Part shown: one piece after another, positions 1,701 to 40,020 of the stretch
Position numbering within the stretch: the first letter of the stretch is position 1
Layout: the number at the start of each line of letters is the position of its first letter
Source of the DNA: Candidatus Woesearchaeota archaeon
Lineage (GTDB): Archaea > Nanobdellota > Nanobdellia > Woesearchaeales > GW2011-AR4
NCBI GenBank assembly: GCA_016187465.1
Contig: JACPJQ010000007.1
Span: 127,818-191,817, forward strand
Length of the DNA stretch: 64,000 nucleotides
Direction: 5' to 3'
Translations under genes and position numbers: made by a program
The notes under the pieces: generated by a model
Seen by the model: only the letters and a program-made list of their open reading frames with translations
The model's database searches: none
Told to the model about the DNA's origin: nothing

Positions 1701-2855
1701 TTACCCAAACATCCCCATGTAATCTTCCCCTTCAGCTGCTTCTTCCTTCTTGACCTTTTCTATAGCCTTCAAAAAGTCGTCTTTTGTGACAGAAGTCCTG
1801 TTGTCCCTTATTGCAAAATAGCCTGACTCGGTGCATACGGCTCTTATCTCAGCGCCGCTAAATCCTTCCATTCTGGCAGTTAAAGCTTCTAAATTGATGC
1901 TCTTCTCGAAGCTCATGTTTTTGGTGTGTATCTTGAATATATCTAATCTTGCTTCCTTGCTTGGGATTGGTATGTTTATCAGCCTGTCCAGCCTTCCGGG
2001 CCTTAATACAGCCGAATCAAGAATGTCTTTTCTGTTTGTTGCCCCTACAATCTTAACATTGTCAAGCGGTTTGAAGCCGTCAAGCTCGGCAAGAAGCTGC
2101 ATGAATGTCCTGTTGACCTCCCTTTCTCCAGAAGTTCCCACCTCGACCCTTTTTGCAGCCAAAGCGTCTAATTCGTCAATAAAAACAATTGCAGGGGCTT
2201 TTTTCCTCGCGAATTCAAAAATCTCTTTAACAAGCTTTGCGCCTTCGCCAATGAATTTCTGCACCAGCTCAGAGCCGACAACTTCTATAAAGGTGGAGTT
2301 TGTAGAAGCAGCGACTGCCTTTGCCAGCAATGTTTTGCCAGTCCCGGGTTCGCCGTAAAGAAGCACCCCTTTTGGAGGGGTAATCCCGATCTTCTTGAAC
2401 AGTTCCGGCTTTTTTAACGGAAGCTCAACTACCTCCTGTATCTCTTTTATCTGGCTGCCCAAGCCTCCGATTTCCTGCCATGAAATTGTGGGCTTTTCAA
2501 CAATCACAAATTTCTCAACATTAAAGCGTCTAGTAATTGGCACTTTTCTTATTATTGTGAGGTTTTTCTGCTCAACCAAAACTAAGTCGCCAGATTTAAG
2601 CTTCTCGCAGTCATTAGATATGTTGACAAGAAACTGGTTGCCGTTGGGTATTTTTATTATAGAAGTATTGCCAAAAAGCTCCTTCACCTCGCAGACCATT
2701 AATGGGGACGATTTGAATCTTTCAATCTCCTCTTTAAGCCTGCTGACAGTTTCCTTAAGAATCCTGTTTTCGTCCTCATACTGATTTGAGGATGTTGAAT
2801 AGCCGTACATCACGCTGTCGATTATGCTCTTTGGCTTTGCTTCTTTTGCTGGCAT
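1701..2855 (-). CDS. pan: proteasome-activating nucleotidase (AAA+)
   Basis: N-terminal coiled coil and OB region, Walker A GEPGTGKT, Walker B FIDELD, SRH LRPGRLDR, C-terminal HbYX-like MFG. Confidence 0.93.
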   Translation of the reverse strand: MPAKEAKPKSIIDSVMYGYSTSSNQYEDENRILKETVSRLKEEIERFKSSPLMVCEVKELFGNTSIIKIPNGNQFLVNISNDCEKLKSGDLVLVEQKNLTIIRKVPITRRFNVEKFVIVEKPTISWQEIGGLGSQIKEIQEVVELPLKKPELFKKIGITPPKGVLLYGEPGTGKTLLAKAVAASTNSTFIEVVGSELVQKFIGEGAKLVKEIFEFARKKAPAIVFIDELDALAAKRVEVGTSGEREVNRTFMQLLAELDGFKPLDNVKIVGATNRKDILDSAVLRPGRLDRLINIPIPSKEARLDIFKIHTKNMSFEKSINLEALTARMEGFSGAEIRAVCTESGYFAIRDNRTSVTKDDFLKAIEKVKKEEAAEGEDYMGMFG

Positions 2856-2897
2856 AGCGATTGTGAAAAATTTCTTACTATAAAAGTTTTTGGTTTA

Positions 2898-3839
2898 TCA
2901 AACAAATTTTCCTTCTTTCATTATCAAAGCGCCGTCAGCATAAATTGTCGGCTTTTTGATTACAAAATCAACATGGAATGGCACATCAACTTTGCCGCCA
3001 AAATGCTTGTTGTTGCCGAAGGCTATGTGGCAAGTTCCTGCCACTTTTTCGTCTTCCAGAACATTGCCTGTTATTTTTGCCCTGTAATTTGTGCCGATGC
3101 CAAGCTCTGCAACATTCCTGTATAACTCATTTTTTAGTAATTTTTTGAACTGATTTGCAGTTTTTCCGCCATTCGCACTTGTTATAAAGCCGTCCTCAAC
3201 AGTTATTTTAATATTTTTATCAACTTTCCCCAAACCGCCAACGCTCGCATCCACAATAATTTTGCCATTTGTTTTTCCTTCAAGTGGGGCAATGAATATC
3301 TCACCTCCGGGTAAATTGCCAAAAGCACGCTTTTTATTATATATGGCTCCATCATCACTTATCCATTTTCTATTCTTAATTTCAAATTCCACTTTTGTAC
3401 CGAGTTTTGTTGTTATTTTTATATTGGATTTATTTTTCAATTTTGATATTAGTCTTTCATTGATTGTTTTTATTTTATTAAAATTAATATTTAATGTCCT
3501 TTGCATCGTGTCTTTTGTAATACCAGGCATGCTTGCTATTCTAGCGCCATTTTTGATTGCATTCTCTCTAGCTCTTGTATGACTCAAAGATTTTGTTGTT
3601 GGCATTAAAATCACATCATGCTTTAGCATTTCATCTGCGATTTTTTGTGGAGGTTCTTCTCCATGAGCTTTTGGTATGGTTGTTAGAATTATTTTTGAAT
3701 TTTTAGTAATTTTTAATGAGTTTTTGTATAATGCATCTCCTATTGATTTTAGTTTAGAGTCCGTAACAATAAGGCAGCTTTCATTTTTCTTTAGATTCAT
3801 GCACTGCTTTAGGATTATTTTGCATGATTTATCGAGCAT
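2898..3839 (-). CDS. M29-family (thermophilic) aminopeptidase
   Basis: GNLPGGEIFIAP, AELGIGTN, EDEKVAGTCHIAFG and HVDFV metal-ligand motifs. Confidence 0.88.
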   Translation of the reverse strand: MLDKSCKIILKQCMNLKKNESCLIVTDSKLKSIGDALYKNSLKITKNSKIILTTIPKAHGEEPPQKIADEMLKHDVILMPTTKSLSHTRARENAIKNGARIASMPGITKDTMQRTLNINFNKIKTINERLISKLKNKSNIKITTKLGTKVEFEIKNRKWISDDGAIYNKKRAFGNLPGGEIFIAPLEGKTNGKIIVDASVGGLGKVDKNIKITVEDGFITSANGGKTANQFKKLLKNELYRNVAELGIGTNYRAKITGNVLEDEKVAGTCHIAFGNNKHFGGKVDVPFHVDFVIKKPTIYADGALIMKEGKFV

Positions 3840-3840
3840 T

Positions 3841-5619
3841 CTAAGCCACAAACTCCCCATCTCTTAATATCCAATGCTTATTCCCTTTATTATCAATCCC
3901 ATAAACATCAAGCTTCTGCCTCGGGGCATTGAACACAATATCCATATGGTACTCTGTGCTCCTGTCAGGCTCAAATCCAGAGCCAAGGGCGATATGCATC
4001 ATCTTTGCTATTTTTTCGTTGACAATAAGATATTCGCACAACCTCGCCTTTGGATTTGTGTTGATCGCAAATTCCCCTATCCTCTCAAAGTTCTTCTTTT
4101 TCAAATCAATTATTTCCTGCGGCAAACTTTTGTTTTTTTCTGATTCAAGCAGCATTTTCATTGCATCATTTTTCCTTTTATTTATTTTCTTAATAATTTC
4201 ATTTGGGCCGTCTATGATTTTATAAGTGCTGCCGTAGCACTCTACAACAATGGGATTTTTATCATTTAATGCATAGCTCTGGTCAACGTGAACAACAATA
4301 TCTCCGACAAATATGCCATGTATGTACTCCGGTGTCACAAAAGCCTCTCCACCGGGAATATTGCCCATGCATCCAGCTTTTATCCCAGTCATCTTTAGGT
4401 AATCCCTGTTTATTTTTTCCCGCACATCAGTGTCAGAGCGCCTGACCCACCTTCTCGAGCCGTCTTCCTTGACTAATCCGACCTCAAGTTTTGCTGTATA
4501 TTTTTCTTTAAGCCTGCCTTCAACATAGATAACGTCGCACTTGTCCATTTTGTCCTTCAATTTTTGGTTTCTGGCCCTTATGTCGCTCCAGTCCACCAAG
4601 TTTGTTTCTATGAATATATCTATTGGAATTGTCTCTGTAAAAGCCACTCTTGCAACTGGGTCCCTCTCGTCATATTTTGTTTGCGGGTAGAAATCAAGCT
4701 TGTAGATAATCTGGCCTGGAGTGAGCCATCTTGTCTTTTTGTTTGGGGAGGGATAGCCGATAATCTCACCAAAAAGGTGCTTGCCAGGATAACCTTTTGC
4801 GCTTATCGAAAATGATAAATCAATTGGCTTTAGCCTGTCAAGATTTAATAGCTTTGAAAGTTTTTTGTATTTTTTAAATATCTCTTCATCAATCTCCTTT
4901 GACAGCTCGCATCCGAGCAAGGTAGCCCTTAAATCCGATATCCTCTCGCTTTTCTCAAGCATGGAAGCTCTGAATGTATAAGCATTCATTATCGGCTCTG
5001 CTGTTTTTTTTGCAGTCTGCGTCATTGCCCATATTATCGAATAAGAGTCAAGATAGTCTTCCAAAGGATGTCCAATTAAATTCTGAGCAGGTATCAGCGA
5101 AAAGCCAATACCTACTCTCTCACCTTTTTTTAAAGCATAAACATCTCTCCAAAGGATTTCAGCGGTTTTCATTAACTCGTCCATTCTGTAATCCTTAAAC
5201 CATTCTGTATGAAAGGGCAGTTCCAAAGAGCCCGTAAACTTATTTGATTTTGCTTCAAGTACAAATTCAGGTTTTTTGAATAATTTTTTAAATTCGCCTT
5301 TTGCTTTTTTGTCAACCTCTTCAATAAAATCTGCCAAGGATTCTGTTTTTTCATTTTTTATGCCTTTTTCAAGCTCTTCAAAATTATTCCAAACGTCTTT
5401 TAACGCTTCCAATCCTTCTGATTTTTTATTTACGCCAATGCAGCTTGCGTCTGCCCCGAGCTCATGCAAAGCCCTTGACAAAGGAGCGGTGGAATAGAAA
5501 GCTTCCTTGTTATTTATGTCAAAAATTATGAAGAAAGTTTTACCTTTTGCTTTCTTGACATGATTCTTGTAGTCTTTTACAGCGGAACTAAATGATTTTT
5601 CTTTGTATTTCATTTTCAA
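3841..5619 (-). CDS. long M29-family aminopeptidase-like protein
   Basis: C-terminal GNIPGGEAF, GEFAINTN, NEKIAKMMHIALG and HMDIV motifs; about 270 aa extra at the N-terminus. Confidence 0.8.
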   Translation of the reverse strand: MKMKYKEKSFSSAVKDYKNHVKKAKGKTFFIIFDINNKEAFYSTAPLSRALHELGADASCIGVNKKSEGLEALKDVWNNFEELEKGIKNEKTESLADFIEEVDKKAKGEFKKLFKKPEFVLEAKSNKFTGSLELPFHTEWFKDYRMDELMKTAEILWRDVYALKKGERVGIGFSLIPAQNLIGHPLEDYLDSYSIIWAMTQTAKKTAEPIMNAYTFRASMLEKSERISDLRATLLGCELSKEIDEEIFKKYKKLSKLLNLDRLKPIDLSFSISAKGYPGKHLFGEIIGYPSPNKKTRWLTPGQIIYKLDFYPQTKYDERDPVARVAFTETIPIDIFIETNLVDWSDIRARNQKLKDKMDKCDVIYVEGRLKEKYTAKLEVGLVKEDGSRRWVRRSDTDVREKINRDYLKMTGIKAGCMGNIPGGEAFVTPEYIHGIFVGDIVVHVDQSYALNDKNPIVVECYGSTYKIIDGPNEIIKKINKRKNDAMKMLLESEKNKSLPQEIIDLKKKNFERIGEFAINTNPKARLCEYLIVNEKIAKMMHIALGSGFEPDRSTEYHMDIVFNAPRQKLDVYGIDNKGNKHWILRDGEFVA

Positions 5620-5646
5620 AGTGAATCTGCAGTTTGCTTTAAAATT

Positions 5647-6861
5647 TTACGTTTTTGAGCTTGATCTTAAATCAGGAACCCTAAATAAATAAAACAACGA
5701 AAACACTATAAAAGCCATTATCATGAAAAGAACAGCATTGTAGCCGTAGCTTACAATAAGCCATCCCCCTATCAAGGGTCCTATAATTGCAGCAAGCCTG
5801 TTTACAATCTGGGAATACCCGAAAAACTCTCCAATCTTGTCACCTGGGGTCAAAAACACAAACAAAGTTCTTGCATTTGCCATCGAGCCTCCGAATGCAA
5901 TGCTTCCAATCAGGCCCACTATCCAAAATGTGTTGATGTTTCTTGAAGATATAAACACGCCAACTACAAAAATCCAGGTTATTGTGGAGAAAGCAAGCAT
6001 ATTCTTTGCGCCATACTTGTCAGAAAGCCTTCCTAAAATTAATGCGCCGATGCACGCACCGATAGACTGCCCCATAAAAAGCAGAATAAACTGCCCAAGC
6101 TGCATGCCTATCTCGTTTTGGGCATATAAAAAGAAGAATATGTCAATTGCAGCAAGCGCATTAGAAAACAAGCCGAAATAAGCTAGAAAGGGTAACATTC
6201 CCCTTATCCTGAAAAGCCCTTTTAAAGTATTAAATATCCTGAAAAGCATTTCAGAGCTGCTCATTCTCAGCTTTCTAACCTTTTCGTCCTTAAAAATAAA
6301 GAGCATAGGAATCGAGAAAATAAGGAAAAAAATCGCGATGACCGGGAATACCGCTTTTATGCCTGCAGCAGTCTTTATTGTATCAGTTTCAAAAAACTTC
6401 AATGTCAAATAAGCTATGAGCATGCTTAGTATAGTTCCAGTGAATCCTGCAGCCATCCCAAATCCCGAAACCTTTCCCATGTCCTTGTCAGCAGCCAGCA
6501 GCGGCAAAATGGTGTTGTATATTGAGAGGCTTATGTTATACAGAATCGTTACAATTCCGGCCAGTACAAGATTCCAGAAGAGATTAACCCCAGGAAGAAT
6601 TGCTATTATCACTATCATAGCAATCGTAGGGACAATGATAAATGGTTTTCTTATATTGGTATTGTCAGAAATTAAACCGATTGCAGGAATAAGAATACCG
6701 AAGAAAAACAGCCCTACGGCAACTGTAAGGCCGAGGTGGAACTCGTTGCCGTGCAGGATTTCTGTCACAAGCAAAGGCCAGAAGATAGTCACAAATGGCG
6801 ATGTGAACGCAGTGTTTGCCAAATCATACAGCGCCCATGCAATTATTTTTTTGTTAAACAT
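5647..6861 (-). CDS. MFS transporter (UMF1/ATG22-like)
   Basis: About 12 TM helices, N-terminal AWALYDLANTAF, GRLSDKYGAK motif A. Confidence 0.88.
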   Translation of the reverse strand: MFNKKIIAWALYDLANTAFTSPFVTIFWPLLVTEILHGNEFHLGLTVAVGLFFFGILIPAIGLISDNTNIRKPFIIVPTIAMIVIIAILPGVNLFWNLVLAGIVTILYNISLSIYNTILPLLAADKDMGKVSGFGMAAGFTGTILSMLIAYLTLKFFETDTIKTAAGIKAVFPVIAIFFLIFSIPMLFIFKDEKVRKLRMSSSEMLFRIFNTLKGLFRIRGMLPFLAYFGLFSNALAAIDIFFFLYAQNEIGMQLGQFILLFMGQSIGACIGALILGRLSDKYGAKNMLAFSTITWIFVVGVFISSRNINTFWIVGLIGSIAFGGSMANARTLFVFLTPGDKIGEFFGYSQIVNRLAAIIGPLIGGWLIVSYGYNAVLFMIMAFIVFSLFYLFRVPDLRSSSKT

Positions 6862-6867
6862 CCTGTT

Positions 6868-7203
6868 TCATCCTTTCTTTACTACAAAAACAACGATTGC
6901 AATGGCATAGCTTCCATCATGGCTTATGCTCAAGTCCGAGCTCAAAACAGCATTTTTTCCCAATTGTTTTTTGTTGATTGACAGCAAGGGCTTTCCGCTT
7001 TTCTCCTTATTTATAATTATGTCATGCCACCTTAAACTGTTAAATGCTTTTTTGCAGCTCTCTTTTGCAGCAAAGAGTCCTGCAAGAGTCTCGGGTCTTG
7101 AATTCCTGATTTCGCTTTCGTAAAATATCTTAAGCAAAGAGCTCTTGTCAGTTTTCCTGAATCTGTCTATCTCAACTATATCGCAGCCGGTTTTTATATC
7201 CAT
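6868..7203 (-). CDS. acpS: holo-[acyl-carrier-protein] synthase (phosphopantetheinyl transferase)
   Basis: GCDIVEIDRF, LAGLFAAKES, SGKP and LSISHD motifs. Confidence 0.9.
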   Translation of the reverse strand: MDIKTGCDIVEIDRFRKTDKSSLLKIFYESEIRNSRPETLAGLFAAKESCKKAFNSLRWHDIIINKEKSGKPLLSINKKQLGKNAVLSSDLSISHDGSYAIAIVVFVVKKG

Positions 7204-7232
7204 ATTCCCGAATAGTGTGTTCTGCTTATTGC

Positions 7233-9605
7233 TCATAAACTTCTTACCTTTTGCTCTATGAGTTTGGTGATGCCATCATAAGTCATCTTTGACAGCTGCT
7301 TGCTGCTAAATTGAATAGGCTTTCCAAAGATCACTGATGTTTTTCCAAATCTTGGGATTGAGCTGCCTCTTGGAAGCACCTCAAACAGGCCATTTATCCT
7401 CACAGGTATGACTTTGGCTTCCATGCCGGCAACTATGTATCCTACGCCAGACTTAAAATCGTGGATATTTCCATCCGGGGTTCTTTCGCCTTCTGGAAAA
7501 AGTATTATGGAAAATCCCCTGTCAATCATTTCTCCGGTAAACTCTAGGCTCGTGCCAGTTCCTATTGCTGCGCCGAATGGGTAAGCATTGTACGCAAATG
7601 AGCTGCAATATCCAAGCAGTTTTCTTAGAATTTTCTGAATTCCTCCGACGCCAATTCCGAATACAACTTCAGGATGGGCTGCAACAGCAAAAGGCATTTT
7701 TATGCGCCGTGTGATGACTGGAATGTCAAAAGCGCTCTGATGGTTGCTCACTATGATTACAGGCTCTTCGATATTTGCTAAATTCTCCAGTCCTTTGTAT
7801 TCTGTTCTTGTAAAAAATCTTATCAGCGGGAATAGCAGAAATACCTGAAGAGCATGCCTGAAAACTCTGACAAAGGGCATTGTTGGCCATGCCCTAAACT
7901 TGATGCTTGTGATCCTGCTTTCCTTCATCAGTTTTTCTATGTCCAGAGCAGTTGTGTTTTTGTCTATTCTTGTTTCATCAATCTCAACATCAAATTGCTT
8001 TTCAAGCTCTGAAATCATCTCGACTCTTTTAAGAGAGTCCATGCCAAGCTCGACCAGCTTGGAATTTTGCTTTATTTCTTTGCCTGGATCCAATACTTGG
8101 TGTATCAGCCCATAAACTTTATTTTCATAAGCATATTTTTTATGCCTGTCGGTTTTGTCAAGCTCCTGCTGCAAAATAAATCTTTTGACTTTGCCAGTAG
8201 GCGTTTTTGGAAACTGCATATCGCGCCATACTGAGCAGCCTGCTATTGTCTGGTGGCTAAGCAGCCTTGCATTTGCCTCTTTTATCACATCCTCGCATTT
8301 GATCTTTCCCTCCAATATCAAAACTGCATGTATTTTGTTGTTTCTTTGGATGGCGCAGCTCTCTTTCACGCCTTTTATCGAGTTAAGAACAGACTCTATA
8401 TCAACCGGATATGCCTTCAGACCGCTTGATGTGATGATAATATCCTTTTTCCTCTCCTTTATGTAAAGGTAGCCGTTTTTTATGTATCCTACATCTCCTG
8501 TCTTAAACCACCAGTTTTCAAAAGAGCTTATTGTTTTTTCCCTGTTTTTGTAGTAGCCGCTTGTTATGTTATCTCCTTTAACAAGAATTTCACCATCTTC
8601 GCCGAGCTTAACATTAACACATTGCGCAATTTTCCCTACGCTTCCTGCTTTTGATGCAAACGGCGTGTTCAATGAGATTACAGAAGAGGTTTCTGTCATG
8701 CCGTAGCCGTTCAGCACCATTATCATTTTTCTTTTCCACCATTTCTCAAGATCTATGTCAAGAGACGCCCCTCCGACCCCTATAAGCCTGAACTGGATTC
8801 CTAAGCTGCACGGCACGCATTTCCCTTCCAAATCATTTTTTACAGCAGCGAGCATTCCGGGGACAAAAATAGCGGCGTTAATTCTTTTGTTTCTTATAAA
8901 GGCAATGAGCTTCTTTGGCCGGATTGAATCAATAAAATAGATCCCATATCCATAATAAACAGGCAAGAGTATACCCATAATCTGGGAAAAAACATGGCTT
9001 AAAGGAAGGACATTCAAAAATTTCAAGTGAATCCTTAGTTTTAAGGCGTCTGTCGCAGCCTGAAGCGCTGTAAGGATATTTTTATGCGTTAATACAACTC
9101 CTTTTGGATCTCCTGTTGTTCCTGAAGTGTATTGTATTTCCAGCGGATCTTCTGGATTTGCATTGTCGATTGGAACATTGCCTGTCTTAAACTCTTTTAG
9201 CTTGTCATCAAGCTCTTCAAGGTAAAAAGATTTAATTTTTGCTCCAGCGGGAAGATTTATCGAGATGCTTTGAAAGACTGCCTTTGCCTCTACCTGCCTG
9301 CATATTTTTTGAAGAAGGGTTTTATCTGTGAGCGCATCCAAAGGCACTGCAGTTATGTTTGACAGGATGCACGCAAAATAAATTGTTACCCATTCAATTG
9401 AGCTATTGCCGAGTATTATGACTTTGTCGGCTTTTTTAATGCTGTATCTTTTAAGCATCATCCTTGCGGCATTTATTTTCTTGAGCAATTCCTGGCCATT
9501 AATTGATTTTGTCCTATAGCCGGTTTTATGGCTGAAAGAAAGCTTTTTGTTTTTCAGCAATGAAAGATAAACTAATTTTTGGATAGAATAAGCATCTTGC
9601 ACCAT
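7233..9605 (-). CDS. fatty-acyl adenylation domain + carrier (ACP) domain + lysophospholipid acyltransferase fusion
   Basis: YTSGTTGDPKG, GYGMTE, FKTGD and PKTPTGK adenylation motifs; LGMDSL phosphopantetheine site; NHQSAFD (HxxxxD) and FPEGERT PlsC-family motifs. Confidence 0.88.
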   Translation of the reverse strand: MVQDAYSIQKLVYLSLLKNKKLSFSHKTGYRTKSINGQELLKKINAARMMLKRYSIKKADKVIILGNSSIEWVTIYFACILSNITAVPLDALTDKTLLQKICRQVEAKAVFQSISINLPAGAKIKSFYLEELDDKLKEFKTGNVPIDNANPEDPLEIQYTSGTTGDPKGVVLTHKNILTALQAATDALKLRIHLKFLNVLPLSHVFSQIMGILLPVYYGYGIYFIDSIRPKKLIAFIRNKRINAAIFVPGMLAAVKNDLEGKCVPCSLGIQFRLIGVGGASLDIDLEKWWKRKMIMVLNGYGMTETSSVISLNTPFASKAGSVGKIAQCVNVKLGEDGEILVKGDNITSGYYKNREKTISSFENWWFKTGDVGYIKNGYLYIKERKKDIIITSSGLKAYPVDIESVLNSIKGVKESCAIQRNNKIHAVLILEGKIKCEDVIKEANARLLSHQTIAGCSVWRDMQFPKTPTGKVKRFILQQELDKTDRHKKYAYENKVYGLIHQVLDPGKEIKQNSKLVELGMDSLKRVEMISELEKQFDVEIDETRIDKNTTALDIEKLMKESRITSIKFRAWPTMPFVRVFRHALQVFLLFPLIRFFTRTEYKGLENLANIEEPVIIVSNHQSAFDIPVITRRIKMPFAVAAHPEVVFGIGVGGIQKILRKLLGYCSSFAYNAYPFGAAIGTGTSLEFTGEMIDRGFSIILFPEGERTPDGNIHDFKSGVGYIVAGMEAKVIPVRINGLFEVLPRGSSIPRFGKTSVIFGKPIQFSSKQLSKMTYDGITKLIEQKVRSL

Positions 9606-9616
9606 ACAGATGCAAT

Positions 9617-10690
9617 TCAATTTATGGTTAATAAATCTTTTGATGTCTTTGTTAAAACTATGGGGTTATTTTTGAATAGAATAGTGTCTTCAATCCTTAT
9701 CCCGAATTTTCTTGGGATGTAAACCCCGGGCTCGATTGTGAAAACCATGTTGTTTTTTATCCTGTCCTTGGAGTTTAATGTGAGGTTTGGCATCTCATGT
9801 ATCTCTACACCAACACCATGGCCAAGCCCATGCGTGAAGTATTTTCGCTTATGACCGAGATTTTTGACTGCAAAATCATATAATTCAGAGCATTTTTTGT
9901 TGTTTTTTACTTGATTGATTGAGTTATTTTGGATTGAAAGAAGTGTGTTGTATGTTTCTCTTTCTTCCCTATTCGGATTGCCAACATAGATTGTTCTGGT
10001 TATATCTGAGCAATATCCATTGTACTTCACACCAAAATCCAAAACGCAAAAGCCATTTTTTATTTTCATGTTTAACGGCTCATGGTGCGGCATACTTGCA
10101 TTGCTTCCGGATGCGACAATCGGGCTGAAGGAAAGCTCCAGGCCGAGTTTTTTTGTCTCGTATTCCAGAAAAGCTGCTGCTTCTGACTCTGTCCTGAAAT
10201 CCTTGAAATTTCTTATAGCTTTCTGGATTATTTTATCAGCGCAGCTGCAGGATTTTCTCAGAAATTTTATTTCTTTGTCAGTCTTTATCGTCCTTAACTT
10301 AAGGCAGTCCAGCGCTAAGTCGATTGCTTTGGCTTTTTTGAACTGCTTTTTGAAATGCCTGTAGGAATTTAATGTGAAATTGTTTTTATCGATTGCAATT
10401 TTTTTGATTTTTAATTTGTTTTTTTTCATAATTCCGTAAATCGATTCAAAAAATCTCTTCTTTTCCATTGAACATGCTCTTTTGATCATGGAGTTTTTTG
10501 CCCTTTGCAACTCCATATAGGGAGTAATAAGAAATGGCGGTTTTTTGGACGGAATGATCAATGCCCCCAATCCTTTGTACCCGGAAAAATAAAACATGTT
10601 TGGGTTAATTTTTATTGGGTCGGAATTATAGAATAAAGCGGCATCTGCCCCTTTCTTCTGCAAAATTGACTTCAATTCGTTAATTTTCAT
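9617..10690 (-). CDS. Xaa-Pro peptidase (M24B)
   Basis: DFGV..YCSDITRT, HGLGHGVG.EIHE, TIEPGVY and GIRIEDT motifs. Confidence 0.92.
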   Translation of the reverse strand: MKINELKSILQKKGADAALFYNSDPIKINPNMFYFSGYKGLGALIIPSKKPPFLITPYMELQRAKNSMIKRACSMEKKRFFESIYGIMKKNKLKIKKIAIDKNNFTLNSYRHFKKQFKKAKAIDLALDCLKLRTIKTDKEIKFLRKSCSCADKIIQKAIRNFKDFRTESEAAAFLEYETKKLGLELSFSPIVASGSNASMPHHEPLNMKIKNGFCVLDFGVKYNGYCSDITRTIYVGNPNREERETYNTLLSIQNNSINQVKNNKKCSELYDFAVKNLGHKRKYFTHGLGHGVGVEIHEMPNLTLNSKDRIKNNMVFTIEPGVYIPRKFGIRIEDTILFKNNPIVLTKTSKDLLTIN

Positions 10691-10735
10691 TTTAATTCAA
10701 AAATCTTATATACCATTTAAAGTTTTTTCTATTTT

Positions 10736-11944
10736 ATGCAAAAATACAGGCTTAAAAACGGAATTACGGTTGTTTTTGAGAGAAACTCCTCAAAATCTGT
10801 TGCTGTTGAAGTTATGTTTAAATTCGGCTCCAATTTTGAGAATAAAAAGACTCTTGGATTGGCGCATTTTCTTGAGCACATGCTTTTCGAAGGCACAAAA
10901 AAAAGGAAGAGCAGCAGGGAGATTGCAAATGAAATAGAGAAATATGGCGGGGAGTTCAATGCCTACACAACAGGCGACAGGACTGCCTTCTTCATAAAAA
11001 TAATCAACAAGAGGTTTGAAACTGCTTTGGACATTTTGTCTGACATGGTTGCCAATCCGCTGTTTGATGAGAAGATACTCGAGAAGGAAAAGCAAGTGGT
11101 GCTGAAAGAGATTAACATGGTCACAGACGATCCAAGGCTCCACCAGTGGATATTGTTCCAAAAAATATTGTTTGACAGGCACCCTGCAAAAAATCCTACT
11201 TACGGCAGCATAGAAACTGTAAAGGCACTTGACAAGGAGCATGTCGCTTCCTATTATTACTCGCATTATATTCCGAACAACATGATAATTTCAGTTTCCG
11301 GAAATGTCAGCAATGTTGGGAAGATAATTGAAGAATATTTTGGAAAGCTCAAGCCCAGAAAGCTGATTACAAGGCCAATTGTGAATGAGCCGCCTCAGGC
11401 CAAAATCAAAAAATTTGTTGAGAAAAAGAAAACTTTAAACTCTTATATGGTGCTGGGCTACAAGACTGTTTCCAGGCTTCACAAGGACAGCTATGTTTTT
11501 GATATCATAACTGCAATCCTCGGCAGAGGGCAGTCAGGATGGGTTTTTGACGAGATAAGAAACAAGAGGGGGCTGGCTTACCAGGTTGGAGTCAACAGCG
11601 AGATGGAATCTGATTATGGGATGTTTGCAGTTTATACAGGACTTGACAAGAAAAACATAGAGAAGGCAAAAGAGATTATTCTGCAGCAGTTCAGAAGGCT
11701 TGAAACATTAACCAGCAAAGATTTGGAAGAGGCGAAAACCTACATCGAGGGGAATAATGCCCTGCAGACAGAGGACAATCTGCATCACGCAGACAATCTC
11801 GCTTTCTGGGAGTCGATAAAGGACGCCAAGCTTTTTTATTCTTATTTGCAGAATGTAAAAAAAGTTACATCTGAAGACGTAAAGAGGATTGCAGGGAAAT
11901 ACCTGAATCAGAATTATACGTTGGTGGTGATTGAGCAGAAATGA
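10736..11944 (+). CDS. M16 zinc peptidase (insulinase family)
   Basis: Inverted zinc motif HFLEH, FNAYT, EIRNKRGLAY. Confidence 0.92.
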   Translation: MQKYRLKNGITVVFERNSSKSVAVEVMFKFGSNFENKKTLGLAHFLEHMLFEGTKKRKSSREIANEIEKYGGEFNAYTTGDRTAFFIKIINKRFETALDILSDMVANPLFDEKILEKEKQVVLKEINMVTDDPRLHQWILFQKILFDRHPAKNPTYGSIETVKALDKEHVASYYYSHYIPNNMIISVSGNVSNVGKIIEEYFGKLKPRKLITRPIVNEPPQAKIKKFVEKKKTLNSYMVLGYKTVSRLHKDSYVFDIITAILGRGQSGWVFDEIRNKRGLAYQVGVNSEMESDYGMFAVYTGLDKKNIEKAKEIILQQFRRLETLTSKDLEEAKTYIEGNNALQTEDNLHHADNLAFWESIKDAKLFYSYLQNVKKVTSEDVKRIAGKYLNQNYTLVVIEQK

Positions 11945-13018: not shown

Positions 13019-13225
13019 GATACATTTGTTAATTTTATTGTTTATATTTAAAGTTTTATATTGATTTTTGAATTTTTATTGTTAATTGTATATACTGAAC
13101 GTGCCCTATTGGCAAGGGCAAGAAGAACAAGAACATTATATTTAGATTATTAAAAATAAATATGCTTCGCAATTCTAGTACTCGGCTTTCGCCCTTGTAC
13201 ATTACGCTCAAGCCCCGCCATACAT

Positions 13226-13474
13226 TCACTGAGTCTGGACTTTCCTTAAAACCATTTGGGATACTATTCCAAGAGAAACTCCGAGTATTTCCAAAGAGAA
13301 AAAGATGACTGTGCTGAAGGGCAGATTGCTTACATAAGTGCTGAATCCTGTAGTGCTTGAAATCACATTTCCGGTCGGTATTACGCTTGCAGGAGTCCCA
13401 TCAGGCCCATATATTGGCAGCATAAAGTAAACAAGCAAAGCAACTAACGCTCCTATGTATGCTCCTTCTTTCAT
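13226..13474 (-). CDS. small two-TM membrane protein
   Basis: 82 aa with two hydrophobic segments; TTTATA box upstream. Confidence 0.65.
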   Translation of the reverse strand: MKEGAYIGALVALLVYFMLPIYGPDGTPASVIPTGNVISSTTGFSTYVSNLPFSTVIFFSLEILGVSLGIVSQMVLRKVQTQ

Positions 13475-13531
13475 AAAGTATCTATCTAAGTTTTAGAATA
13501 TAAATGTTGCGGTTTGGAAGAATAAGATTTT

Positions 13532-14218
13532 TTATTCCCAGTTCAAGTTAACTCCTTTATTTTCTAATTCTCTTTCTAACTGATCACTTAGATTGTGAAA
13601 ATCGTCGTTGCTTAATTCTACTAAGATATACTTATTCTTCCTATAGAAATCCTTCTTCTTTTGCTTTAAATTTTGATAATCTTTTTCTTCTGAACCCCAG
13701 TATTCGATGTAAATCCCTTGATCCGGTAAGAAGAAATCAGGATAAAACTCTTCGCCATTTTTGCTAACTCTTTTTTCATATATAAATCTTATTTTGTTTT
13801 TGAATAAAAAATCAGCAATCATAACTTCTCCACGTGACCTAACGTAATGTCCATCTTGCGTTCTAAAATTTGAAGGATATTTTTTCCTGTAATCTCTGGT
13901 TTTACTTGATTGAAGTTCTATTTGTTTTTGTTTTATAATATTAATATTATCCGTTTTACTTTTCTCTTCACATTGACCACACAACTTCCTTTCGTCTTTT
14001 TTAAATCTGCCACATTTTATACAAGCTAAAAATGTCCCATTATCAAAATTTTCTCTACAATCCCAACATAAAGGGTATCCACCGGATTTCTTACCGCACA
14101 ACTTACACGTAGAGCTACTAATATTTGTATCTAATTGCTCTTGAATCTCCCTCCAACAATCCTTGCATAGATTATAATCTCCAGAATTTGCAGCACATCT
14201 TTTACACAAATTAGCCAT
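13532..14218 (-). CDS. Cys-rich (three CxxC..CxxC repeats) protein with C-terminal PD-(D/E)xK-type nuclease domain
   Basis: CKRC..CKDC, CKLC..CWDC, CIKC..CGQC; DGHYVRSRGE..IADFL..YPDFFLP..IYIEYWG. Confidence 0.7.
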   Translation of the reverse strand: MANLCKRCAANSGDYNLCKDCWREIQEQLDTNISSSTCKLCGKKSGGYPLCWDCRENFDNGTFLACIKCGRFKKDERKLCGQCEEKSKTDNINIIKQKQIELQSSKTRDYRKKYPSNFRTQDGHYVRSRGEVMIADFLFKNKIRFIYEKRVSKNGEEFYPDFFLPDQGIYIEYWGSEEKDYQNLKQKKKDFYRKNKYILVELSNDDFHNLSDQLERELENKGVNLNWE

Positions 14219-14311
14219 GGATGTTAAAATTAAGTAATGTTATTTATATTTATCTACCACTGGACATCTCCTGACGCAAGCTTTATAAAAGTGCATTTCT
14301 CAGTGTTTGTT

Positions 14312-15163
14312 ATGAAAATCTCTGTTTCGTTGTTATCCTCTTATCTGTATTGCTCCAGAAAGCTGTTTCTTGAGAAAGTGCTTCTTCTTGAAGAGCCTCC
14401 GAAGGAAAGCATAGTGATGGGCTCGATAAGGCATGAAACTTATGACAAAATAAACAAGTCAGAGGAGCAGATAGTAATTTCAATAACAAAAAAGGCAACT
14501 TTGGAAGGCATACAGGAGATGTACAGGCAGAAATACCTGCAGATACTCAGGAAAGCCATAGCTGACAGCAGGGAAAGGCTGAAAAATGTCAATTTGAACA
14601 TGCTTGATGCCTACAGGAAGAGCTTTCCTTTCATAATGGAAGAGTCTGTAATGAGGGCAAATAACATTTTCAGCTTTATAGAAGCCAATAATGTGTATGG
14701 GGAAGAGTTATGGCAGAAATTGACTCCTAAAATACTGTCAGAGTTAAGGATTGACTCTGATGAGCTAAAGCTGAAAGGCATTATAGACCAAGTCCATGTT
14801 TATGGCAATGAATACGTGCCTTTCGAGCTTAAAACAGGCAGAACCCCAAGCGATGGAGTCTGGCCGTCACACAGGATACAGATAGCGGCTTATTCATTGC
14901 TTTTGCAGGAGCATTTCAATAAGCAAGTAAAAGAAGGCTTTGTTGTTTATCTCGATACAAAAGATAAAAGGCATATTGCAATAAACCCATATATGAAAGA
15001 GGAGGTAAAGCAGATGGTTGACGAGGTTATTGCGCTGCTTGAAAGCAGGGAACTGCCGGATTTTTGCAATAACGAAAACAAATGCAGGAAATGCGGCTTA
15101 AAGTCAACTTGCTATGATGAAGAAGAAGTTAATAATTTGCTGAAGATAAGGGTTTCAAGCTGA
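14312..15163 (+). CDS. cas4: stand-alone Cas4-family exonuclease
   Basis: YLYCSRK, GSIRHE, LKGIID, ELKTG, QIAAY and C-terminal C..C..C Fe-S ligands; no array or other cas genes in the window. Confidence 0.85.
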   Translation: MKISVSLLSSYLYCSRKLFLEKVLLLEEPPKESIVMGSIRHETYDKINKSEEQIVISITKKATLEGIQEMYRQKYLQILRKAIADSRERLKNVNLNMLDAYRKSFPFIMEESVMRANNIFSFIEANNVYGEELWQKLTPKILSELRIDSDELKLKGIIDQVHVYGNEYVPFELKTGRTPSDGVWPSHRIQIAAYSLLLQEHFNKQVKEGFVVYLDTKDKRHIAINPYMKEEVKQMVDEVIALLESRELPDFCNNENKCRKCGLKSTCYDEEEVNNLLKIRVSS

Positions 15164-15181
15164 ATTTAACGATTGAAATAA

Positions 15182-15221
15182 GGTATTGGTAAATCACTGG
15201 CTGGTAAGAGTCGGCTGGTAA
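15182..15221 (+). repeat. left terminal inverted repeat
   Basis: GGTATTGGTAAATCACTGGCTGGTAAGAGTCGGCTGGTAA, with CTGGTAA occurring twice. Confidence 0.9.
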
Positions 15222-15234
15222 GAAGTGACTGATT

Positions 15235-15780
15235 TTATTCTTCCTTTACTTCTTCAAACCATGTTTCAAATAAATTATAAAGTGGTTCAAACATCGCACA
15301 GAAAAAAGCGACCATGAGTAAAATATCTTCAGGTTTTTTAACATAAATTTTAGGAATGTTTTCAGTGTATTTGTCCTTGTCTAATGTTAGAATAATCATT
15401 GTGTAACCAATTTTGGAATATTCTTCTGCCACTTCTTTTACTGCCACAATTTCATCCATTTCAACACTTGGGTCAACTTCAATTATTGAAAACAGGGAAT
15501 TAATCATTCTTATAAATGTAGGACTGCTTACATATTTTTTCTTATCTTTTTTGAGTGCAATTAACACATCTACTGGCAAAAATATATCCATTGGAATTTT
15601 ATTCTTCTTAACGAATCCTAATAAATCAACAAAGACTTTAGTTGCCTTAGAATCATCATCTGTCCCTTCGAGCCATCCAACAATAAAAGATTTATCTATA
15701 GCATATTTTACTTTAGACTTATCCTTTGGTAATCCCTCATCTTCCAGATATTTTATGATTTCTTTTAATGAGGGTGGCAA
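15235..15780 (-). CDS. passenger protein, PIN-domain-like
   Basis: TTG start with AGGAGGT SD; YAIDKSFI, IILTLDKD and VKKPED resemble PIN strands but are degenerate. Confidence 0.55.
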   Translation of the reverse strand: MPPSLKEIIKYLEDEGLPKDKSKVKYAIDKSFIVGWLEGTDDDSKATKVFVDLLGFVKKNKIPMDIFLPVDVLIALKKDKKKYVSSPTFIRMINSLFSIIEVDPSVEMDEIVAVKEVAEEYSKIGYTMIILTLDKDKYTENIPKIYVKKPEDILLMVAFFCAMFEPLYNLFETWFEEVKEE

Positions 15781-15805
15781 TGAATTTTAACCTCCTAAGA
15801 AAATC

Positions 15806-15991
15806 TTAAATGTTTTTTTCGTTTTTCAATTTTGAAATAAGATGCTTTGTGAGAGAATTGTCTGGCAAAGTTTCTTTCGTGATTTTCATTTTTGAATGTG
15901 GCTCATTCTTTACAATAACCAAATTCTTATCTGGGTCTTCTTCAAAATCGTACAAGTTCGATGTTAGCCATTCTTTTTCTAATTTTGCCAT
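15806..15991 (-). CDS. small passenger protein (possible antitoxin)
   Basis: 61 aa ORF immediately upstream of, and co-oriented with, the PIN-like gene. Confidence 0.5.
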   Translation of the reverse strand: MAKLEKEWLTSNLYDFEEDPDKNLVIVKNEPHSKMKITKETLPDNSLTKHLISKLKNEKNI

Positions 15992-16181
15992 TTTTGGTAT
16001 TTAATGAATTTTATAATATATATTTTTTGCCTATATGAGTCATATATTTAGCCAAAATCTGATTCAAAAAAAAAGTCATTATCTTCATCTTTGGCAAAAC
16101 CCTTTTTGTTGGCGGAAAATATGCTATTAACATACTTTCAAACATTGAATTGGGATACCTATATAAATACCTTTTGTTTTT

Positions 16182-16259
16182 ATTTGCCTCAAAACTGCCA
16201 TTTATCTCAAAAGTCCCAATTCTGCCTCAAAAGTGGAAGTTTTGCCTAAAAAGTGATTG
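16182..16259 (+). repeat. four degenerate direct repeats, 18-20 bp period
   Basis: ATTTGCCTCAAAACT, ATTTATCTCAAAAGT, TTCTGCCTCAAAAGT, TTTTGCCTAAAAAGT. Confidence 0.6.
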
Positions 16260-16305
16260 TTGAAAGTGGAACAAATACAACAAAATAGGAAACATTTATA
16301 TACTT

Positions 16306-16719
16306 ATGTCCACTCTTGTCCCTTCTATGACACAGCGAAACAATCAGGAGAGGATTCTTATTTTCCTTAGTAGAAAATCTCCGTCGAGAATTGGAGAAAT
16401 TGTGGATGAAGCTGTCATTAAGCGTATATCCTCACAAGTCTTCTTAAAGCGACTCACAGAATTAGGATTCATTGAAAGAGTAGGTTATGGTCAATACTCC
16501 ATCACTGAAAAAGGTAAAGAAGAAGCGAAAAAGATTTTGACTCGCACCGACGGAAAAATCAATCAAGAAGAGAAAACAGAAATAAAAGAAGAAGATAATC
16601 ATTCAGATACCACTCTCAAAAATATAGATGATATTGACCTTATTATCCAATTAAAGAAAAGGTATGGAAATGAAGAACTCATTAAACGTCTAAAGAAGAT
16701 GATAAAATTATTAGAATAA
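16306..16719 (+). CDS. winged-helix DNA-binding protein
   Basis: ILIFL...IGEIVDE...LKRLTELGFIERVGYGQYSITEKG winged-helix pattern. Confidence 0.8.
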   Translation: MSTLVPSMTQRNNQERILIFLSRKSPSRIGEIVDEAVIKRISSQVFLKRLTELGFIERVGYGQYSITEKGKEEAKKILTRTDGKINQEEKTEIKEEDNHSDTTLKNIDDIDLIIQLKKRYGNEELIKRLKKMIKLLE

Positions 16720-16722
16720 TTT

Positions 16723-16851
16723 TCCTCTGAGTCTGAGGAGGGAGGACTCTATGGGGGTTAGCATCCAACCCGAACATGCTTGCCAAGTGTGAATCGGTGG
16801 TAGCCAGATGCTAATCCCTGTGTCCCTTTTTTAATGTGGTAGAAACCACAT
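16723..16851 (+). ncRNA. putative structured RNA / long hairpin between convergent regulator genes
   Basis: 15-bp helix 16751-16765/16807-16821 with 3 G-U pairs, inner CCGA/TCGG and CATGCTT/AAGTGTG stems, T6 tract, second hairpin ATGTGGT/ACCACAT. Confidence 0.45.
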
Positions 16852-16886
16852 CGCTTGAATGGTAGTATTTTGACTACTTTATAAAA

Positions 16887-17042
16887 TTAACTATTTTTTC
16901 CGTTAATCATGTCCTTTTTTATCAAATTTTCCAAGTAATCTGAAATGTCAATTTCGTCGTCAATACACTTTTTCCTTACTCTTTTCCAGAGGAGTGGTTC
17001 AATCTTAATGCTGGTAGTTTTTCTTCGTATTTTTTCATCCAT
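16887..17042 (-). CDS. ribbon-helix-helix regulator (not in ORF track)
   Basis: MDEKIRRKTTSIKIEPLLWKRVRKKCIDDEIDISDYLENLIKKDMINGKNS: beta ribbon TSIKI plus two helices, divergent from the transposase. Confidence 0.8.
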   Translation of the reverse strand: MDEKIRRKTTSIKIEPLLWKRVRKKCIDDEIDISDYLENLIKKDMINGKNS

Positions 17043-17112
17043 TATACATAAAGTAGTATGGTAGTATATAAATATTTATTTACTGAAGTATATACAATTT
17101 TAGATAGATTTA

Positions 17113-17137
17113 TATAGTAGTATTACATACTACTATA
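17113..17137. promoter_or_regulatory. palindromic operator overlapping the transposase TATA box
   Basis: TATAGTAGTAT-tac-ATACTACTATA, perfect 11-bp arms, abutting TTTATATA at 17109-17116. Confidence 0.7.
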
Positions 17138-17174
17138 ATACTTAAGTAGAATAAATAACTAAAGGTGAACAAAA

Positions 17175-18317
17175 ATGCAACAAGAACAATATGAAACAAG
17201 AAAAGCAAGAAGTTTAGATATGTTAAAGTCAGGCGTTGAGCCAATAAAGAATGGCTTTAATGAGTATTTTATACCGAGCCAAGTAGAAAAGAATGTCAAA
17301 TACAAAGTTTCAATAAAGAATGGCTGGTATTCCTGCGAATGTCCCGACAACAAAGAGGGAAATTTGTGTAAGCACATTCTATTTTTGAAAACTTACTTTG
17401 CTTTGAAGTTCAAAGTACAGGAATACAAGCACAAAGTAAGCACTTCAACGCCATGCCCTTACTGCAATAGTGCCAATATCAAGAAAGATGGCTCTCGCAA
17501 AACTATAATGGGAAAGAAACAGAAATGGCTCTGCCAAGAGTGCGGAAAAAGATTTGTCAATTCGCCTGTAAGCAAGATAAAAGGCAATACTGAATGTGTC
17601 ATAACAGCGATAGACCTTTACATGAAAGGGGTTTCTTATCGTGGAATTGCTGACAGCATGAAACAATTATTCGGCTTGAAAGTAACCCATGTAACGATAA
17701 TAAACTGGGTTAATGATTATATGAGCAGAATAAATAAATATGTTGAAAGCAAAAAGCCGAATGTTTCTGACTTATGGAACGCTGACGAGCAATTCATAAA
17801 GGTAAAAGGAAAAGAAGCGTATGTTTGGAATGTGTTGGATAATGAAACGAGATTTTTATTAGCAAGTAATCAAAGCCCAACACGAACTTATGAAGATGCA
17901 AGAGAAACGTTCCAGATTGCGAAAGCAACAGCACAAAAGAAAGCCAAGACAATAGTTACTGATGGGGCTTTTAGTTATGAAAGAGCAGTAAGAAAAGAGT
18001 TTGCGACTTATGAAAATCCGAAACCCCATTATAGATATGTAAGCTTAAGACAGCATGACAGCAATAACAATGTTATAGAGAGATTTCACGAAAGTTTCAG
18101 GCAAAGGGATAAAACCATGAGGGGCTTTAAAGGGAATGAGAAGCAGTATGCCGAGAACTTTAAGACGTACTATAATTTCGTGAGAAAGCACCAAGAACTT
18201 AAGACAACCCCAGCAAAAAGGGCTGGAATAAACGAAAGCGATTTGTGGAAGGAACTACTTGAAAAATCAACAAAACAGCCGATAATTACCAGTCGGAATT
18301 TACCAGCCACAGATTAA
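17175..18317 (+). CDS. IS6/IS240-like DDE transposase with N-terminal SWIM finger and zinc ribbon
   Basis: CECPD..LCKH (SWIM), CPYC..CQEC, HTH SYRGIAD..VTHVTI, WNADE, IVTDG, NNVIERFH; the stop codon lies in the right TIR. Confidence 0.9.
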   Translation: MQQEQYETRKARSLDMLKSGVEPIKNGFNEYFIPSQVEKNVKYKVSIKNGWYSCECPDNKEGNLCKHILFLKTYFALKFKVQEYKHKVSTSTPCPYCNSANIKKDGSRKTIMGKKQKWLCQECGKRFVNSPVSKIKGNTECVITAIDLYMKGVSYRGIADSMKQLFGLKVTHVTIINWVNDYMSRINKYVESKKPNVSDLWNADEQFIKVKGKEAYVWNVLDNETRFLLASNQSPTRTYEDARETFQIAKATAQKKAKTIVTDGAFSYERAVRKEFATYENPKPHYRYVSLRQHDSNNNVIERFHESFRQRDKTMRGFKGNEKQYAENFKTYYNFVRKHQELKTTPAKRAGINESDLWKELLEKSTKQPIITSRNLPATD

Positions 18318-21170: not shown

Positions 21171-21252
21171 TTTTCCTCTTTTCACTGAATCCATTTATTT
21201 TAATGTTTGTATATAAAGTTTTTGGTTTAGTTTGTTGAGTGTTGATAATAAA

Positions 21253-22506: not shown

Positions 22507-22637
22507 TTTTACCAAAAACTTATACTTTTTGTATAGAGAACTTTGAATAATCCTCAATTTTGCCACTTTAGATTCAAAGTTCTCTCAGGGAATTTTAACA
22601 ATTTTATGAATATTTAAAATTCCCTATATAAAACTTT

Positions 22638-40017: not shown

Positions 40018-40020
40018 AAA

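Follow-up and report, generated by a model that had tools for sequence, protein, structure and literature searches.

Ether-linked isoprenoid lipids are part of what defines Archaea, and to our knowledge archaea generally lack acyl carrier protein (ACP) and AcpS. The subject of this report is a window of 64,000 nucleotides (Candidatus Woesearchaeota archaeon, GCA_016187465.1, contig JACPJQ010000007.1, positions 127,818 to 191,817 of the forward strand) whose minus strand carries three adjacent genes, encoding a fusion of an adenylation (A), a carrier (T) and a PlsC-type acyltransferase (AT) domain, an AcpS, and a transporter of the major facilitator superfamily (MFS). Among the closest described systems is the 2-acyl-glycerophosphoethanolamine (2-acyl-GPE) cycle of Escherichia coli Aas and LplT, described as passing an acyl thioester on a phosphopantetheine carrier to a lysophospholipid (PMC4666226). 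As in that pair, adenylating and PlsC-family AT domains reside here in one protein encoded beside an MFS transporter, and the fusion's AT domain matches Aas models. Unlike E. coli Aas, which has the order AT-A and uses the cell's ACP, the fusion has the order A-T-AT with its carrier built in; it scores 25.1 bits against the NF005959 cut-off of 886 and falls outside that family. The accompanying MFS is of the UMF1/ATG22 type rather than LplT, and the archaeal host lacks fatty acid synthesis, ACP and the lipoprotein Lnt context. The parallel with Aas plus LplT drawn in the first-pass annotation of this sequence thus stands as a functional analogy but not as orthology.

Other bacterial proteins share parts of this logic. 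The MFS-AT-A tri-domain families (PRK08633 and PRK06814, ~1140 aa) likewise link a transporter, an acyltransferase and acyl activation, and the fusion aligns to their models with its A domain (model positions 691-1122) and its AT domain (409-566). However, these models have no carrier domain at the matched positions, the operon's MFS gives no match to their N-terminal portion, and the fusion, which reaches 169.2 bits where 1349 are required and 139.7 where 1221 are required (NF006386 and NF005291), is not a member. Thermotoga maritima PlsC (TmPlsC; 5KYM) has the HX4D, EGxR and VPxVP motifs in common with the AT domain, but it has "F/I-x-D-R" at motif II where the fusion has "FNAYPF" and an inserted helix (residues 656-672), and more N-terminal sequence where the AT domain has one leading helix; the acyl donor of the fusion would be its carrier in cis. 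FadD13 (3R44) and AasS are fatty-acid-activating enzymes of the same ANL fold as the A domain, whose top match is FadD13, but they stand alone, work with CoA or free ACP and are not joined to an acyltransferase. AasS is described as loading exogenous fatty acids on a carrier (PMC12086093, PMC11271967).

The window protein itself belongs to a bacterial A-T-PlsC family annotated as "AMP-binding protein", with which it shares the three-domain architecture and which appears uncharacterized. The clade of the window protein is a short form of 733-790 aa that lacks a ~30-residue insertion in the A domain, and in free-living bacteria the family has no adjoining AcpS or MFS. A similar arrangement of A domain, carrier and acyltransferase is found in the CoA ligase-ACP-reductase-AGPAT layout of the Myxococcus ElbD-type ether-lipid protein, from which the fusion differs in having no reductase domain. 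Homologues of PlsC and GpsA have been noted in DPANN archaea including Woesearchaeota (Coleman et al. 2019, PMC6431249), and the FAALPred paper mentions one FAAL from Woesearchaeota and FAAL-LPAT contexts in bacteria (PMC12820801). The literature that we located holds no description of the fusion or the cassette in archaea or in bacteria of the candidate phyla radiation (CPR), a point on which the supplementary tables of PMC12820801 may bear. New here are a genome-wide lipid inventory, order-wide counts, the sole-acyltransferase result, the motif-II difference, a structural placement and an approximately unbiased (AU) test of the phylogeny.

We propose, with moderate confidence, that the three genes form a self-contained, Aas-like module that activates scavenged fatty acids and esterifies them to a membrane lysolipid. 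All functional assignments in this report draw on sequence and predicted structure. The genes of the module and the features of the fusion are as follows, in window positions.

9605..7233, minus strand: A-T-AT fusion gene, 790 aa from ATG, with Pfam AMP-binding, PP-binding and Acyltransferase domains
7236..6868, minus strand: acpS, group-I 4'-phosphopantetheinyl transferase, 122 aa
6861..5647, minus strand: UMF1/ATG22-like MFS transporter, 404 aa
8136..9605, minus strand: adenylation (ANL) domain, residues 1-490, with FadD13 as best solved-structure match by sequence
9096-9131, minus strand: A3 motif YTSGTTGDPKGV of the adenylation domain
8190-8192, minus strand: A10 Lys472 of the adenylation domain
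7935..8120, minus strand: carrier (PP-binding) domain, residues 496-557, PF00550 at 41.4 bits
8034-8036, minus strand: phosphopantetheine Ser524 in GMDSL of the carrier domain
7812..7877, minus strand: leading helix PFVRVFRHALQVFLLFPLIRFF, residues 577-598, a helix in both models
7395..7805, minus strand: PlsC/LPLAT acyltransferase domain, residues 601-737, PF01553 at 51.8 bits
7725-7742, minus strand: HX4D (HQSAFD), acyltransferase motif I
7575-7598, minus strand: family-specific FAYNAYPF at the motif-II position of the acyltransferase
7488-7496, minus strand: FPEG, acyltransferase motif III

The three open reading frames (ORFs) named in the first-pass annotation are all present at these positions, all on the minus strand. 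The acpS ATG and the fusion TGA share 4 nt (ATGA), an overlap by which acpS is translationally coupled to the fusion, and 6 nt lie between the acpS stop and the start of the MFS gene; both distances were checked by script. Upstream, 11 nt separate the stop of a pepQ-type M24 peptidase gene from the fusion start, for which a TTG at 9620 offers an alternative that would add five residues. Fusion, acpS and MFS thus constitute a tight minus-strand operon (9605-5647). The operon is not due to chance, since 115 relatives keep all three catalytic centers unchanged and related genomes carry the cassette again. An Rfam scan of the window gave zero matches.

All three Pfam domains of the fusion exceed their cut-offs (AMP-binding, 201.8 bits; PP-binding, 41.4; PF01553 Acyltransferase, 51.8). 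The A domain is a member of the ANL family (PF00501, cut-off 29.9), and its core residues T160 S161 G162 P167 G169, G300 Y301 G302 E305, D371, R385 and K472, which we assign to motifs A3, A5 (GYGxTE) and A7 (TGD), the A8 Arg and the A10 Lys, are invariant in the 115 aligned sequences. Its top solved structure is Mycobacterium tuberculosis FadD13 by sequence (E 3e-40) and by Foldseek (E 9e-40), with MenE second, and the FAAL structure 3PBK aligns to fusion residues 35-239 only. The best NCBIfam model for the domain is the long-chain-fatty-acid-CoA ligase NF004837, at 222 bits under a cut-off of 476, so that it falls short of this family; JGI labels relatives of the fusion "long-chain acyl-CoA synthetase". 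By this homology, a fatty acid is the likeliest substrate. The carrier is likewise a clear member of its family (PF00550 cut-off, 20.8 bits), and Ser524 in GMDSL is present in 115/115 sequences; the serine that had been read as intact is confirmed at its script-checked position. In the AF2 model of the full-length fusion (pLDDT 90.7, pTM 0.85), the structures matched at low root-mean-square deviation (rmsd) represent thioester-forming states (MenE 5X8F at 3.7 A, 4CL 3A9V and DltA 3E7W), and the A+T part superposes on thioester-forming holo-EntF (5T3D; TMq 0.59, rmsd 4.6, 614 columns). The predicted A-T pose fits a carrier-loading enzyme.

The AT domain is, by sequence and predicted fold, closest to the lysophosphatidic acid (LPA) acyltransferase PlsC. 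Its sole PDB sequence match is TmPlsC (E 7e-11), and the AT-only model (pLDDT 96.6) aligns to 5KYM in VIA-align with Z 19.8 and rmsd 2.6 over 187 residues, followed by the glycerol-3-phosphate acyltransferases (GPATs) 1IUQ from plant (Z 16.8) and 8E50, human GPAT1 (Z 16.4), and by LpxM and PatA (9.9); unrelated folds remained at Z<=5.6. Among NCBIfam models it matches AGP_acyltrn (2.5e-13) and the Aas-type PRK08633 (3.8e-12) and PRK06814 (8.5e-11). Motif I of the PlsC/LPLAT family is present as NHQSAFD, with H622 invariant and N621 and D627 at least 90% conserved in the 115 sequences (neither varies in the sets of 12 and 54 sequences). Motifs III and IV are present as FPEGERT and VIPVRI, with P704 and E705 invariant. 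The 22-residue helix 577-598 that leads into the AT core is moderately hydrophobic (Kyte-Doolittle 1.25-1.39), below transmembrane level, and is likely a monotopic membrane anchor in the predicted models; the alignment to TmPlsC begins at PlsC chain residue 29, before the catalytic core, and the part of TmPlsC aligned with this helix is presumably its membrane-embedded helix motif.

The second gene encodes an AcpS of 122 aa by both PF01648 (32.3 versus 25) and TIGR00556 (50.9 versus 45.35), while the equivalog model TIGR00516 gives 53.5, slightly under its cut-off of 59.8. DIVEIDRF, AAKESCKKA and SISHDG are recognizable by eye as phosphopantetheinyl transferase motifs. The fusion's carrier is the sole PP-binding match in the source genome (1.62 Mb, 8 contigs, 93% complete) and hence the one visible client of AcpS in this genome. 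With zero ketosynthase and zero PlsY found there, AcpS would have no role in fatty acid synthesis. The MFS matches MFS_1 (PF07690, 106 bits) and ATG22 (PF11700, 97.1 versus 24.1, over profile positions 76-475 of 482), which makes it a UMF1/ATG22-like protein; JGI labels its relatives "UMF1 family MFS transporter".

Taken together, these assignments suggest the following sequence of events. AcpS would move 4'-phosphopantetheine from CoA onto Ser524 of the fusion's own carrier, the A domain would use ATP to activate a free fatty acid, probably one with a long chain, and the thioester would be loaded on the carrier in cis. The PlsC-type domain, docked at the membrane surface via helix 577-598, could then use its HX4D dyad to pass the carrier-bound acyl chain to a membrane-lipid hydroxyl, the acceptor most likely being a lysophospholipid that is scavenged or derived from turnover. 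The cotranscribed UMF1-type MFS may supply or flip this acceptor, or else the fatty acid.

The gene content of the source genome is in line with an organism that obtains its acyl chains from outside. The first-pass annotation had suggested looking for loss of the GGGP and DGGGP synthases, and such a loss is indeed what the genome presents: no PcrB/geranylgeranylglyceryl phosphate synthase (GGGPS) and no UbiA/digeranylgeranylglyceryl phosphate synthase (DGGGPS) was found in it. Among the genomes of 41 relatives, GGGPS was above cut-off in 0/41 and UbiA in 6/41. A polyprenyl synthase was also not found in the source genome, nor were PlsY or a ketosynthase, and there was no convincing match in it to glycerol-1-phosphate dehydrogenase (G1PDH). 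Two candidates for the latter were rejected: the only Fe-ADH_2 match above cut-off is AroB within the shikimate operon, and a 395-aa Fe-ADH beside a pgsA gene reaches 30 bits versus 413. The genome does encode phospholipid genes outside the window, at the following loci of the source genome (G000).

Contig 1, 194839-197110 (L122:2839-5110), minus strand: operon of two PlsC-like genes (211 aa and 210 aa) and gpsA
Contig 1, 13085-17505 (L123:1585-6005): head-group cluster of phosphatidylserine (PS) decarboxylase, methyltransferase, two double CDP-alcohol phosphatidyltransferases, PAP2 and CarS
Contig 4, region 50875-53812 (L124:2376-5313): 503-aa long-chain-fatty-acid-CoA ligase, NF004837 at 495 bits versus 476

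The 210-aa stand-alone PlsC passes TIGR00530 (103.4 versus 102.95) and GpsA, an NAD(P)H G3P dehydrogenase, passes NF000942 (404 bits versus 257). In the head-group cluster, pgsA and pssA are above cut-off and the archaeal-type CarS barely passes NF003114 (148.6 versus 148 bits); the genome has one more pgsA. On this gene content, the source genome is predicted to combine a bacterial-style glycerol 3-phosphate (G3P)/ester phospholipid line with an archaeal cytidylyltransferase and with no synthesis of acyl or isoprenoid chains. The tandem PlsC pair was found again in same-genus genomes. The 503-aa ligase gene is adjoined on one side by a gene encoding 443 aa with an SLT lytic-transglycosylase domain and on the other flank by one for an MvaI/BcnI restriction endonuclease. 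The SLT protein may hint at contact with bacteria that have peptidoglycan walls, and it is the one pointer in the genome to the bacterial host or prey suggested in the first-pass annotation.

The preference for re-acylation draws on a survey of lipid genes in 26 fusion-bearing genomes, from which the unpublished genome G234 was left out. The fusion is the sole PF01553 match in 15 of the 26, three of them rated 100% complete, GpsA was seen in five and a near-full-length GGGPS match in one. With a lone acyltransferase and no backbone synthesis, re-acylation of lysolipids fits these genomes better than de novo synthesis.

The fusion recurs among archaea, and its architecture is widespread in bacteria. 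In a word-indexed protein search that returned 7000 scoring proteins, 114 of the best 120 hold all three Pfam domains at 33-89% identity, and the six rows whose source organism is named are all "Nanoarchaeota archaeon" or "Candidatus Woesearchaeota archaeon". The 115-sequence alignment keeps the A3 loop, GYGxTE, D371, R385, Lys472, Ser524, His622 and P704-E705 without exception. Among the 41 relatives, the full-length fusion is encoded in three of 25 same-genus genomes (G000, G012 and G013) and in G025, and it is split across contig ends in G035. An even draw of the order found it in 25/401 genomes and 20/257 genera, G234 (locus L105) being one of the 25, though none of the claims depends on it. 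Among 80 kept genome-contig loci, 47 encode a near-full-length fusion in one frame (25-34% identity). Bacterial holders are mostly Acidobacteriota, with Verrucomicrobiota, Geobacter, Nitrospirota, Planctomycetia, Fusobacterium, a metagenome-assembled genome (MAG) of Cyanobacteriota, and the CPR groups Uhrbacteria and Saccharibacteria.

In archaeal loci, AcpS usually and the MFS often accompany the fusion. Within reach of a neighbor scan by hidden Markov models built from the collected sequences, in which locus flanks extended only ~0.5-1.5 kb, acpS adjoins the fusion on the same strand in 17/27 archaeal loci (16/26 without L105), preceding it in some of these and following it in the rest, and a UMF1-type MFS adjoins it in 11/27 (10/26). 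Among the 80 genome-contig loci, AcpS adjoins the fusion in L023, from a CPR Uhrbacteria, and in L064, with a weak match in L037; a UMF1-type MFS is beside the fusion in only one Planctomycetia locus, and one Saccharibacteria locus has a different MFS there. In free-living bacteria, the neighbors of the fusion are unrelated genes, with neither AcpS nor MFS adjacent. AcpS thus accompanies the fusion in precisely those hosts that lack fatty acid synthesis. By genome, ACPS occurs in 11/41 relatives, including 5/5 that bear the fusion, and in 10/10 bacterial controls; in agreement with the general archaeal absence noted above, it occurs in 0/4 archaeal controls, as does PF01553 (0/4).

Split versions of the system occur in at least four of the other ACPS-bearing relatives, all of them same-genus genomes. 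AcpS lies beside a small stand-alone carrier (82-116 aa) in G001, G005 and G022 and beside a 569-575-aa AMP-binding enzyme in G002 and G022, a carrier being undetected in G002. On G012:C6, a frame of 1010 aa that joins A domain and carrier lies near a PlsC gene. The split-system loci are as follows.

G001:C3:116830-117397
G002:C24:71490-73722
G005:C35:2142-4515
G022:C25:18396-20385

A tree was built from 48 of 70 near-full-length rows; L105 and 21 bacterial rows, mostly Acidobacteriota, were left out. It places the window fusion in an archaeal-only group of 14 (SH-aLRT 89), inside a short-form subclade of five (100). Archaeal and bacterial rows interleave, with three label changes in the free tree when L064 is recoded as archaeal. 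Several independent inter-domain transfers were considered and not adopted: in the AU test, one archaeal clade, a group named after the tree had been seen, is also compatible with the data (p-AU 0.174). The fusion protein of L064, labelled "uncultured Methanosarcinales archaeon", is identical to that of L119 (G190, of the window's order), and this public label conflicts with the genome-taxonomy placement.

Several observations weigh against the proposal that the module activates fatty acids and acylates lysolipids. The A domain is under every NCBIfam cut-off, and MenE and 4-coumarate, oxalate and malonyl-CoA ligases match it almost as strongly as the fatty-acid enzymes. The AT domain, at 49.9 versus 102.95 bits, is under the TIGR00530 cut-off and thus outside AGPAT proper. 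It also lacks the motif-II Arg: FAYNAYPF, whose N673 is invariant or near-invariant across the fusion family, stands where the genome's own stand-alone PlsC1 keeps IPIDRE, and the family carries its inserted helix (residues 656-672) beside this motif. In AGPATs the motif-II Arg presumably binds glycerol-phosphate or phosphate. Since it is absent here, the acceptor may differ from a canonical lysophosphatidate-type lipid. As to the transporter, its 16 matches at E<=1 include no LplT-containing NCBIfam model, as judged by the fusion models NF006386 and NF005291, and an identity of the MFS with LplT was rejected on this ground. Its best named matches are drug-efflux and other transporters (TcaB, Bcr/CflA, MdtG, NorA), a search of solved-structure sequences gave only weak NorA matches (E 0.04), and no Rosetta-stone fusion of the MFS with longer proteins scored, which is weak evidence. 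The source genome also has no detected patatin-type phospholipase as a source of lysolipid and no detected CoaB/DFP, so CoA for priming must be acquired. The window nevertheless encodes an acetyl-CoA synthetase of 650 aa (29281-31233, plus strand), and the CoA-dependent enzymes of the genome seem to depend on CoA or precursors obtained from outside. The claim that this archaeon activates scavenged fatty acids and acylates lysolipids, made in the first-pass annotation, consequently stands as regards the intact module, the PlsC-like fold and the absent pathways, while fatty acid specificity and acceptor are proposed by homology and the motif-II Arg is missing.

These difficulties have to be set against what other explanations would require. 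An unlikely one is that the fusion serves de novo synthesis: it would acylate G3P (or LPA) in a phosphatidate pathway of the bacterial type, whose product goes on to CarS and the CDP-alcohol transferases. The GPATs are the next structural neighbors of the AT domain after PlsC and the genome holds GpsA, CarS, PgsA, PssA and Psd, but two stand-alone PlsC-type genes are already in an operon with GpsA, 21 of the 26 fusion-bearing genomes have no GpsA, and phosphatidate takes two acylations whereas 15 of the 26 have a single acyltransferase; the missing motif-II Arg, with its presumed link to glycerol-phosphate, points the same way. We consider it improbable that an NRPS-like A-T pair acylates a small molecule or secondary metabolite whose product the MFS exports. 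The fold of the AT domain is nearest to membrane glycerolipid acyltransferases and is led by a hydrophobic helix, zero other biosynthetic genes were found in the operon or related loci, and the cassette with AcpS is enriched in lipid-auxotrophic DPANN and CPR genomes. What speaks for such a product are the efflux pumps among the named MFS matches, the aryl- and dicarboxylate-CoA ligases that match the A domain nearly as strongly, and the non-canonical motif II.

Still less probable, in our judgment, is an acceptor of an archaeal or other non-bacterial kind, such as a glycolipid, a lipoprotein or a mono-alkyl glycerol ether; the products would then be acylated proteins or lipids that mix ether and ester bonds. 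Two points count for it: the archaeal type of CarS, by its narrow pass of NF003114, and the divergent motif II, which permits another head group or backbone. Against it, no result indicates such an acceptor, and many members of the family come from Acidobacteriota and other bacteria with ester lipids. A misjoined or misbinned bacterial fragment in an archaeal contig would explain the bacterial type of the family, and the labelled archaeal relatives are themselves MAGs. This artefact, which the first-pass annotation had named as a way in which its reading could fail, has a negligible probability. Two Logan contigs, each from a single public groundwater run, bridge every junction with 0 differences: one of 23.4 kb spans 2500-11500 and one of 10.1 kb, from a second run, spans 3303-11500; both runs may be source samples, although each was assembled separately. 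Another study yields a contig of 3.4 kb that reaches from 5652 to 8930, differs at 310 positions (~90% identity) and keeps the MFS-acpS-fusion order contiguous. GC content is even over the region, the same window holds archaeal genes (PAN, archaeal-type TyrRS, PepQ_Arch, aRF1, RFC, SecY, S4e, S3, S5), the same-genus genome G013 repeats the pepQ-fusion-acpS-MFS order at 58-66% protein identity, and the fusion recurs in the order as counted above. Chimeric assembly and contamination were ruled out on these grounds, and the archaeal setting of the module is upheld.

If the module indeed loads scavenged fatty acids onto lysolipids, it would be a third route for exogenous fatty acids, alongside FadD/Aas and FakAB/PlsX, and a function for a tri-domain family that is common in Acidobacteriota and CPR would annotate thousands of genes. 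Core archaeal-lipid genes were not found in the source archaeon, yet its sequence predicts a complete, catalytically intact route for placing fatty acids on lipids together with a G3P-ester line. A bolder reading, which we regard as conceivable rather than probable, is that the lineage lies on the bacterial side of the lipid divide, with a G3P-based, ester-linked fatty-acyl membrane made wholly from scavenged fatty acids, and that the A-T-PlsC fusion and AcpS are a common salvage toolkit of ultra-small DPANN and CPR symbionts exchanged between the domains. The route would run from GpsA, the two PlsC proteins, the fatty-acyl-CoA ligase and the A-T-PlsC/AcpS/MFS module, with archaeal CarS in the place of CdsA, to PgsA, PssA and Psd. 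Some DPANN archaea would then have bacterial-type membranes, with consequences for the lipid divide, for the range of possible hosts and for the use of lipid biomarkers in groundwater.

The operon sits in a peptidase-rich stretch (2898-5619, minus strand, and 9617-11944), with the PepQ-type M24 peptidase upstream, an M29 peptidase downstream and an M16 peptidase on the opposite strand. A 592-aa ORF 3' of the MFS gene (5619..3841) was considered as a lipase partner and rejected; it has no Pfam or NCBIfam match, its C terminus is M29-like by eye and it lies outside the module. Elsewhere in the window, a contiguous aromatic amino acid operon (39004-47045, plus strand) runs from DAHP synthase through 3-dehydroquinate (DHQ) synthase, DHQase, shikimate dehydrogenase, EPSP synthase, shikimate kinase, chorismate synthase and prephenate dehydrogenase to prephenate dehydratase, which is much biosynthesis for a small DPANN-type genome. 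Five ORFs in succession (349, 437, 356, 1048 and 389 aa; 20145-28060, minus strand) have no Pfam match at E<=1e-6. The plus strand also carries an IS240-type DDE transposase gene (17175-18317) and a gene for a stand-alone Cas4-like PD-(D/E)XK nuclease (14237-15163).

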